Of a stretch of DNA of 64,000 nucleotides, positions 42,001 through 45,000 are shown piece after piece. The stretch covers positions 11,775 through 75,774 of the forward strand of contig JBHHTW010000007.1 in NCBI GenBank assembly GCA_046861385.1, written 5' to 3'. Made by a program: the position numbers. Position 1 is the stretch's first letter. Every line of letters starts with the position of its first letter. The DNA is from Fidelibacterota bacterium (GTDB taxonomy: Bacteria; Fidelibacterota; Marinisomatia; Marinisomatales; TCS55).

Positions 42001-45000
42001 TGAATAAGCAAGTAGTCTTATTATGGTTCCCTCCAACTCTCTTATATTATTTTTTATATGTGTGGCCATAAACTCCACAATATCATAAGGTAGATCCAAA
42101 CCGCTTTGTTCCGCTTTTTCCATTAAAATCGCCACTCTTGTTTCATAATCAGGAGGTTGAATATCTACAACAAGCCCGGATTCAAAACGTGACACAAGTC
42201 TATCTGTTAACCCTTTCATTTCTTTAGGTAGTCTGTCCGCTGTCATAACAATTTGCTTTCCCTGTTGATACAAATCATTAAAGGTATGAAAAAACTGCTC
42301 TTGGGTTTGTTCTTTATTTTGAAAGAACTGAATGTCGTCGATTAACAGCGCTTCTGCGTTTCTATATGATTTTGAAAAAACCTCTGTTTTATTTTTTTGT
42401 ATCGATGAAATAAAATCAAGTGTAAATCTTTCACTTGAAGCAACAACAATGTCTGCATATTCTCTTTCACTTATTATAAAATTTCCTATTGCGTGTAATA
42501 GATGCGTTTTTCCCAGACCAACGCCTCCATATATTAATAGAGGATTGTATGAATGATTTCCTGGCGATCCTGCGACTGAAGTCGCTGCTGCTCTAGCGAA
42601 TTGATTATTTGTTCCTTCTATGAAACTCGCAAAAGTGTATTTACTGTTTAGGTTGTGCTTTTTTACTTTACTCTTACTTTCGGCCGTTCCTGTAATCGGA
42701 TCAAAATTCTCTAATTTTATATTTTTATCGGGTGCTATCGTATATTTTATTGTTATATTATTTTTTGTGAAAGCATTGGCCGCGTGTGAAATTTGATTTT
42801 TGTAATGGCTTTCAATCCATTCATAAAAAAATTGATTTGGTACTTCCAGAACGATTTCGTCTTCTGTAAACCCTATTAGCCCAATTGGCTCTAACCACGT
42901 ATTAAATGCATGGCTGGGCAGATTTTCTTTTAAATGGTTTTTTATACTCTTCCAGGTGTTTTCCACAAGTTTTCCACATTAAGATTAAAGTAAAATTTAT
43001 GGATTAATATTTTCCCATTTCAAATGATATTTCCACAATATAGTAAATAAATATTATAAATGTATTTAAGGATGTATTTCTTTTGCAATTTCTTGTGCTG
43101 TTTTTGTACTTTCCCCGGCTAATTTTGAGGATATAATTAATGAAACGAACTTATCAACCAAGCCGAAGAAAAAGAAAAAATAAACATGGCTTTAGGGCGA
43201 GAATGAAAAGCCCCGGCGGTAAACGTGTTTTAAAAAATCGCAGGAAAAAGGGCAGAAGCGTTCTTTCTGCATAGTGGCGGAAATTTTGAAAAAGGTTATA
43301 CATTACATTGATCTGGCTTTTTCCTGGGTTTTAGTGCTTATTATCACTATGTATAGAGCAATATTATCTCCGCTCTTTGGTAACAGATGCCGGTTTCATC
43401 CAACCTGCTCAGCATACGCAATAGAAGCGCTTAAAACAAAAAATCTTTTTAACGCGCTCTTTCTTATAACAAAACGTTTAACAAAATGCCATCCTTTTCA
43501 TCGTGGTGGTTTTGACCCTGTTAAATAACTGTAGGTCATCGTGAACCAAAAAACTCTTTTTGCCTTTTTAATAATCGCTGTCATCATTTTACTGACACCG
43601 GCTTATTATAACATAATATACCCTCCAGCAGAAAACAACCCCGCCGATAGTCTTAATACTGTTTTCAAGCCCGCGGTTTCACCTGATGTCGGGTCCCAGA
43701 TTCTGCCTGCTTTAGTAAATACAAAAACAGTACAAAAAGACAGCATCAAGTACAACGAGGAAAAATACAACATTGAAACAGATTTGTATATCGCTGAGAT
43801 TAGTTCGAAAAATGGCGGTTCAATCACTTCTTTTCTACTAAAAAATTATCCTGGTAACCAGAAAGAATTTGTTCAACTTATTAATAATCACAACAAAGAC
43901 AATCTCTTGTTGTCATATAAAAGCGTTGATGGTGAAACCGTTATTTTGTCCGGGGCGTGGGAGCCTGTAAATAATTTTTCACCAAGACAAATTAACTCAG
44001 AACATGTGCTCTCGTTTCAAAAAGCTACACCGCATGGCTATGTTTATAAAACTTTGACGTTCTATCCGGATAGATATATTATTAATGTTAATACAAATTT
44101 AATAAACCATCTTCCATATATTTCTCAAGGCATATTTGAAATTTCATGGGATGGAGGATTGCCTTTAACTGAAAAAAACAAGAAGGATGATTTAAATTAT
44201 TTCGACGCTTACTTATATACGGGCGAAGAATTGATTAGTCCAGATATATCGGATAAAGAAAACAAAAAAAATGATCATATTAAAGGAGAAACTCTTTGGG
44301 CTGCTCTCCGGACAAAATACTTTTTAAGCGCTCTAATTCCAGACATCGCTGGTTTGGGAGGAATAACGTCTGGTTATTTGGTCAATGAAAATGAGAAAGT
44401 TTTCAACATCTCTCTTTCTTTATCTGCTGCCCAAAATAAAAACACCTCTCTTTATCTTGGGCCTCTTGAATATCGGCGAATTAAAGCAATCGGTTTCAAT
44501 CTTGAGTCTATCATGAATTTCGGCTGGTCCTTTATTCGGCCGATTGCAAAAGGCGTTCATTACCTGTTAACAAAAATGAACACTGTGATTCCGAACTATG
44601 GCGTTATTCTGATCATCTTCTCTGTTCTCATAAAAATAATAGTATATCCTTTAACTAAAAAGAGCTTTGAATCCACCCAAAAAATGCAGGCGATTCAACC
44701 TCAATTAAATATATTAAAAGAAAAATACAAAAACGATCAGCAAAAAATGAGCCAGGCTCAAATGGCTTTATTCAAAGAACATGGTGTAAATCCCCTTGGT
44801 GGCTGTTTACCCATTCTTTTACAAATGCCCCTATTGCTTTCTCTCTTTCAAGTTTTTAGGTCAACAATTGAACTTAGAGGCGCGCCTTTTGTTTTATGGA
44901 TATCAGACCTATCGGCTCCAGATACAATCATCAATTTGCCTTTTTCAATTCCCGTTTACGGAGACCATATTGCTGTGCTTCCAATCCTAATGGGCGTCAC

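Follow-up and report, generated by a model that had tools for sequence, protein, structure and literature searches.

The loss of the RNase P protein RnpA throughout the order Marinisomatales, combined with retention of the ribozyme, is real and was not found in the print sources searched. We are highly confident of the loss itself, which as judged from sequence probably took place once, at the base of the order. The phylum has been named Marinimicrobia or Neomarinimicrobiota and is now called Fidelibacterota by NCBI. The genome under study (G000) is 97.85% complete in 104 contigs, and the window, i.e. the whole stretch of DNA that was analysed, is 64 kb long. The features that matter here are as follows.

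43140..43274, + strand: rpmH, ribosomal protein L34, 44 aa (ORF; PF00468, 75.6 bits at C52:54914-55045)
43272..43276, + strand: rpmH/yidD junction, the usual rnpA site, with a 1-base overlap and without rnpA remnant (sequence and six frames)
43274..43528, + strand: yidD, 84 aa (ORF; a G067 protein with a PF01809 match has its top match here)
43541..45208, + strand: presumably yidC, 555 aa (ORF, relatives compared; named from gene order and motifs)
45205..46551, + strand: presumably the mnmE/trmE GTPase gene (ORF; named from motifs)
41626..42966, - strand: presumably dnaA, divergent from rpmH (ORF; named from motifs)
G000:C75:48509-48917, outside the 64-kb window, - strand: RNase P RNA gene rnpB (RF00010 match)

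The genome-wide survey's note had claimed that rpmH runs straight into yidD with no room for rnpA, and the sequence bears this out: the last G of the rpmH TAG stop is the first base of the yidD GTG start, and no RnpA-sized or nested ORF is present in any reading frame across 43041-43600. A nested rnpA/rpmH arrangement of the Thermus type is likewise missing, no RnpA frame overlapping rpmH in the six frames of the locus. In the neighbouring region (41038-42966), the next genes after dnaA are a LexA-like gene and ssb rather than dnaN; in the sister orders rpmH is preceded by queF, not dnaA.

The note further held that no RnpA is encoded elsewhere in the genome, and the searches bear this out for G000: PF00825 has zero matches, with 10 of 14 control genomes positive, and two profiles gave only noise. 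With filters off and all six frames searched, a profile built on 30 RnpAs of the phylum reached a best E value of 0.58 in G000 (0.42 reading through stops); the same profile recovers held-out families at E <=1.4e-8 for the same database size and, beyond the close group, detects the RnpA of other phyla at 43 of 51 yidC loci. A 180-sequence RnpA profile, also with filters off, gave best E values of 2.1 in G000 and 0.88 in the order genome G067, no better than the 0.37 obtained for reversed G000 sequences. The best RnpA match in G067 (E 0.047-0.21) was discarded as an antisense shadow ORF within another gene. Nothing resembling RnpA turned up among the small proteins that G000 and G067 have in common, nor among the small basic ORFs present in just one of the two. 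G067 is a single contig of 969,550 bases with a 19-nt terminal overlap; lpxB joins DUF374 across its ends, and these two genes are likewise neighbours on G000 contig C25. Because its ends overlap and the genes at its ends are adjacent in G000, G067 looks closed, and an assembly gap is an unlikely cause of its missing rnpA. The single-contig order genomes used here are G067 and G207; the note had cited G067 and G158 as such, which holds for the former, whereas G158 is a bin of ~120 contigs.

The pattern extends across the order. Of 42 order genomes none has PF00825 over its cut-off, versus 100 of 109 genomes from the rest of the phylum, in line with the contrast claimed previously. The rpmH gene was detected in 96 of 121 order genomes, and rnpA is absent at all of the 30 best-scoring rpmH loci, which were read individually. 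As the note had described, these loci proceed to yidD or to yidC: the YidD motif lies 104-197 nt past the rpmH stop in 21 of the 30, and yidC starts within 1-115 nt of that stop, without yidD between, in the other nine. Another set comprised 29 close relatives with YidC identities of 42-83%; none of them has RnpA, and in the 25 where rpmH is in view the YidD motif is always at 96-116 nt; the 30-locus and 25-locus sets may overlap. An alignment trained on the phylum and applied to 206 order genomes from 16 families gave five matches at E <=0.01, consisting of two real RnpAs and three weak matches that sit in frames of 5940, 424 and 291 aa. Three order matches to PF00825 below its cut-off were rejected: one is a shadow frame, one belongs to IF2 and one is a frame containing stops.

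Two side observations concern the operon and its distribution. The yidD gene is gone from the rpmH operon at 9 of the 30 loci (L116:1719-2051; L037-L039, L041, L054-L056, L058, L062), and in G067 it lies ~180 kb away. A record titled Legionellales (L313) carries a Marinimicrobia-like yidC (48% identical) in the rnpA-less layout, and is probably a mislabelled or mixed bin.

The two real RnpAs qualify the claim that rnpA was lost across the whole order, which otherwise stands. Both come from bins of the order, on short contigs carrying rpmH-rnpA-yidD that look foreign and are likely misbinned. The G203 contig (L095, G203:C130; 4.4 kb, GC 0.26) has the queF-rpmH-rnpA order of the sister families and a QueF 76% identical to that of G005, a sister-order genome, while a second rpmH locus in G203 (GC 0.39) is without rnpA. 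The G339 contig (L096, G339:C116; 5.5 kb, GC 0.25) has an atypical L34 and no dnaA. This bin is 79% complete and 5% contaminated, and since the rpmH on the rnpA contig is the only one in the bin, a foreign origin is likely rather than proven. The G339 RnpA showed no match when compared with phage sequences.

The RNA component is in place, as the note had stated. The G000 P RNA matches RF00010 (class A) with 267.6 bits over the full model, positions 1-367, above the gathering score. Of 53 order genomes, 47 have the family over cut-off, including genomes of 0.8-1.1 Mb, and it matches 46 of 48 sister-order and 30 of 30 deeper genomes. In most order and outgroup loci that were read, rnpB is downstream of the same gene, which we take to encode a coiled-coil protein, and usually has what is presumably recJ downstream; no new gene adjoins rnpB in the order loci, and by this gene order rnpB is in its ancestral place. 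Contigs from four RNA runs of three studies cover a G067-type P RNA, one of them spanning 1523-1827 of 1501-1846; as such contigs can neither rank genes nor exclude DNA, they provide a weak hint of expression.

Our alignment combined 43 RNAs of the order with 58 outgroup RNAs, 28 at class level and 30 at phylum level, the outgroup RNAs being from families that carry RnpA (assigned by family, not for every genome). The order RNAs form one clade in the tree built from this alignment, and identity within groups is alike (0.71 in the order, 0.69 in the class outgroups). The P4 core, the J5/15 adenosines and the L15 GGU are conserved in the order, and 25 catalytic-core sites show two changes in the 43 order RNAs versus nine in the 58 relatives. 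An A·A mismatch is found in distal P4 of 6 of the 43. One central P5 pair is reversed in all 43 order RNAs and in none of the 58 relatives; this flip, the P1 end and two positions in the P16/P17 region are fixed in the order alone. P9 and its loop vary across the order RNAs. The G000 RNA itself (L001:1501-1909) has lengthened P3 and P9 helices, a P9 without GNRA loop, and a P1 end as in the rest of the order. An improved L9-P1 contact was considered and rejected: the P1 end does not vary, but many members, G000 included, have a long P9 or one without a GNRA loop. We found no clear feature that would suggest a gain of function in the order P RNA. Cleavage at tRNA position +1 probably continues, with the order P RNA as its predicted agent.

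A different picture is seen on the surface that RnpA occupies. According to PMC2615603 and PMC4919922, RnpA docks on P2-J2/3-J3/4-P4-J18/2 and CR-V. We counted parsimony changes at 15 unpaired sites of this footprint in J2/3, J18/2 and J19/4, and obtained 38 of 1547 in the 43 order RNAs versus 13 of 2650 in the 58 RnpA-bearing relatives. A conservation-matched null expects 10±5 changes, and none of 20000 draws reaches 38; matching on each outgroup singly gives p values of 0.007 and 0.006, and taking either RnpA-bearing outgroup as the focal set gives 0.98. One J2/3 base alone is G in 25 and A in 18 order RNAs with 13 changes, versus G in 56 of 58 relatives with two changes. Other conserved unpaired elements change equally in the two groups (87 of 1547 versus 160 of 2650). 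The comparison is post hoc in that the regions were taken from the literature but picked after column counts, with J2/3 added later; the sites are not independent, the trees were built from the same alignment, and J18/2 is also variable in deeper RnpA-bearing lineages. The footprint drift suggests that the conserved protein-binding surface (J2/3, J18/2, CR-V) is not maintained in the order P RNA.

Within the class, RnpA is also reduced in families that keep it. In families f12 and f15 the protein has ~100 aa and lacks ~10 N-terminal residues with the basic K..RL motif (L015:1483-1785, L021, L025, L028; L267:17700-18050), the frames of f13 and f14 are mostly equally short, and the RnpA of G252 has a diverged N-terminal half, its first ATG being just upstream of the RNR region. 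Parallel erosion of RnpA within the class is possible.

The tRNA genes describe the substrates that the enzyme has to handle. Both G000 and G067 contain tRNA clusters (His-Pro with a 3-nt spacer, Ile-Ala (G067), Thr-Tyr-Gly-Thr and Cys-Leu), and so an endonuclease is needed. U at position -1, which is read by the P RNA itself, precedes 27 of 37 tRNA genes in G000 and 25 of 33 in G067 against backgrounds of 0.31 and 0.36, counted without His genes, over-long calls and genes close to contig ends. It is equally common in the RnpA-bearing G252 (16 of 24), and therefore represents retention, not compensation; with no clear difference between the order and G252, compensation by the leader sequence was rejected. 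CCA is encoded in only 5 of 37 and 2 of 33 tRNA genes, and CCA-less precursors are poor substrates for the RNA alone. Acceptors with a base other than G at +1 are kept as well, and such tRNAs are the substrates most dependent on the protein subunit. Putative -10-like boxes are located at scattered distances from the tRNAs, which are not leaderless or monocistronic with fixed promoter spacing. In G067, a second tRNA called Asn(GTT) (G067:207684-207756, L116) has an acceptor stem that begins like the Gln tRNAs of these genomes.

We searched for proteins that could substitute for RnpA or assist the RNA. HARP (PIN_5) was found in none of 201 genomes, with controls over cut-off in three, and Pop5/Rpp14 is over cut-off in none of five genomes, with four controls over, both in line with the note. 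NYN (PF01936) gave 0 of 5 and RNase J 0 of 5 over cut-off (three order and two sister genomes each), with nine controls positive for the former and positive controls for the latter; YlxR/RnpM was not found in the one genome searched, again with positive controls. The PRORP family PF16953 gave 0 of 5 with no control positive either. G067 and G000 have 803 proteins in common, of which 289 are of <=230 aa; the Pfam scan covered 277 of these, leaving out L34 and 11 that span tile borders. Among the 277 there is no match to Rpp21, Rpp29 or Rpp30, and among the small shared proteins, with the unnamed ones read by eye, no new RNA-binding protein was found.

The best cofactor candidate was a 75-aa basic protein without Pfam family (L147:12071-12295 (-); G000 C37:15841-16065), 82% identical between G000 and G067. 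Of 151 genomes of the phylum, 90 encode it, every one of the 13 class-level outgroups among them, and it has look-alikes in archaea; its presence in RnpA-bearing outgroups means that it is not an order-specific gain, and it was rejected as such. Subtraction against the sister genome G252, using 1.15 of its 1.49 Mb, produced many false "order-specific" genes, and the 71 larger soluble ones, read by eye, resembled housekeeping enzymes. Compensation by polyamines was also rejected, spermidine synthase (PF01564) being patchy in both groups.

The genome-wide survey's note had concluded that tRNA 5' maturation must use the RNA alone or with an unrelated cofactor. Both options stand, given that the loss is order-wide, the RNA intact and HARP not found, and its "must" is better read as "most likely". 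Our preferred reading, to which we give an even chance, is a single loss of RnpA that left the ribozyme to function with no protein dedicated to it. It takes up the gene absence, the intact RNA, the footprint drift and the leader signature, and adds the single loss, catalytic activity and the lack of any cofactor, which we infer. One deletion in the order's ancestor would have removed rnpA with no dedicated subunit taking over, and the class A P RNA would cut tRNA 5' leaders through RNA-only contacts, namely S-domain/tRNA elbow, A248/U-1 and, after CCA addition, L15 GGU/CCA. Help would come at most from Mg2+, salts, crowding or generic basic proteins. Released from RnpA, the unpaired bases of the docking surface would drift, with the P4 active site staying fixed. 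In its fullest form, which falls a little short of even, this reading predicts an abundant, free-living marine order that matures its tRNAs by protein-free RNase P, a natural return to an RNA-only multiple-turnover enzyme whose vacated footprint evolves freely. It is weakened by the scarcity of encoded CCA, the non-G+1 acceptors, the lack of a clear gain of function in the RNA, and the need for protein in vivo: in model bacteria both RNase P subunits are essential in vivo and cleavage by RNA alone needs high cation levels (PMC4919922).

The same dependence on protein in vivo, which is the rule (PMC4919922), speaks for the strongest rival, which we consider a serious but distinctly less probable alternative. 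Here an unrelated and probably pre-existing RNA-binding protein, comparable to Rpm2 of yeast mitochondrial P RNA, would have been co-opted after the loss of RnpA and would dock on a different or overlapping surface. In its favour are the RNA features that no group but the order has fixed (the P1 end, the P5 flip and the two P16/P17-region positions) and the poor performance of CCA-less precursors as RNA-alone substrates, and a co-opted housekeeping protein would slip past all our candidate searches. Those searches nevertheless yielded no order-specific candidate among 277 of the 289 small shared proteins, no new gene beside rnpB and no YlxR/RnpM in the one genome searched, and the 75-aa basic protein is shared with RnpA-bearing orders.

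It is improbable that another nuclease makes most tRNA 5' ends and that the P RNA has been retained to act on different substrates or as a partial reserve. Drift of the footprint and of distal P4 could indeed mean a reduced load, and G067 does have other nucleases (YbeY and a YicC-like protein); however, the core is as conserved as in RnpA-bearing kin, U(-1) is kept, and searches with positive controls gave 0 of 201 for HARP, 0 of 5 for NYN and 0 of 5 over cut-off for RNase J (that for PRORP had none). Marginally less probable still is an RnpA homologue that was relocated and diverged past sequence recognition. The protein is short and fast-evolving, with a mean column identity of 32%, and is already shortened in sister families. 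Yet the 30- and 180-sequence profiles, with filters off, give noise that is no stronger than with reversed sequences, a reading of every small basic ORF of G067 yielded no candidate, and the RNA surface to be bound is the drifting part; a closed-looking G067 without rnpA, together with footprint drift beside a conserved core, argues against a hidden divergent RnpA. An assembly or binning artefact is very improbable even though all genomes are metagenome assemblies and two bins hold rnpA, as the slot is closed inside contigs at 30 of 30 and 25 of 25 loci (in sets that may overlap), G067 is one contig with overlapping ends, and G203 contains a separate rpmH locus without rnpA (GC 0.39), its rnpA contig having GC 0.26 and the gene order of the sister orders.

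A protein subunit thought essential in bacterial cells has thus been lost across a marine order, yet in this lineage of >200 genomes the RNA was kept, and ribozyme-alone tRNA maturation in cells becomes testable. Either outcome would be new, be it activity of the bare RNA under the salt conditions of the cell or another bacterial cofactor unrelated to RnpA, and the RnpA-keeping sister orders provide matched controls together with a small set of base changes.

RnpA is reported in nearly all bacterial genomes by a survey without P RNA search (PMC6380272), and for Fimbriimonas neither rnpA nor rpmH was reported found, the P RNA not being discussed. We found no literature on rnpA or RNase P loss in Marinimicrobia, subscription journals being outside the scope of the search and the genome tables of PMC6380272 being a place where RnpA-less genomes could be listed.

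By its RNA the RNase P of the order is class A, and it falls outside the two-subunit holoenzyme kind. It resembles the bacterial class A holoenzyme (rnpB plus rnpA; E. coli, T. maritima) in the full-length RF00010 match, the P1-P18 layout, the P4 core, J5/15, the L15 GGU and the U(-1) leaders, and differs in the lack of rnpA, the variable unpaired footprint bases and the reversed central P5 pair. The HARP-only Aquificaceae have the same shortened rpmH-yidD-yidC operon, but Aquifex lost rnpB too and uses HARP (PMC10941002), whereas the order keeps rnpB and HARP was not found in 201 genomes. Nanoarchaeum equitans with its leaderless tRNAs also misses an RNase P component (PMC7191817, PMC10941002), in contrast to the clustered tRNAs, scattered putative -10 boxes and retained P RNA of the order. 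Organellar P RNAs (yeast RPM1 with Rpm2; Ostreococcus P RNA with a nuclear RnpA-like protein) are bacterial-type RNAs without linked rnpA, and Rpm2 demonstrates that an unrelated protein can replace RnpA; the organellar proteins are nucleus-derived, a source absent in cells of the order (PMC4919922). The only printed bacterial parallel with RNA evidence that we found is Ca. Hodgkinia cicadicola, where rnpB is present, rnpA apparently missing and tRNA 5' ends are processed, and whose authors suggest RNA alone (PMC6581868). Hodgkinia, however, lives inside insects as an endosymbiont and has a tiny genome, so that host or partner factors are possible, whereas in Marinisomatales rnpA is absent from 16 families with genomes of 0.8-3.8 Mb that are found in seawater runs.
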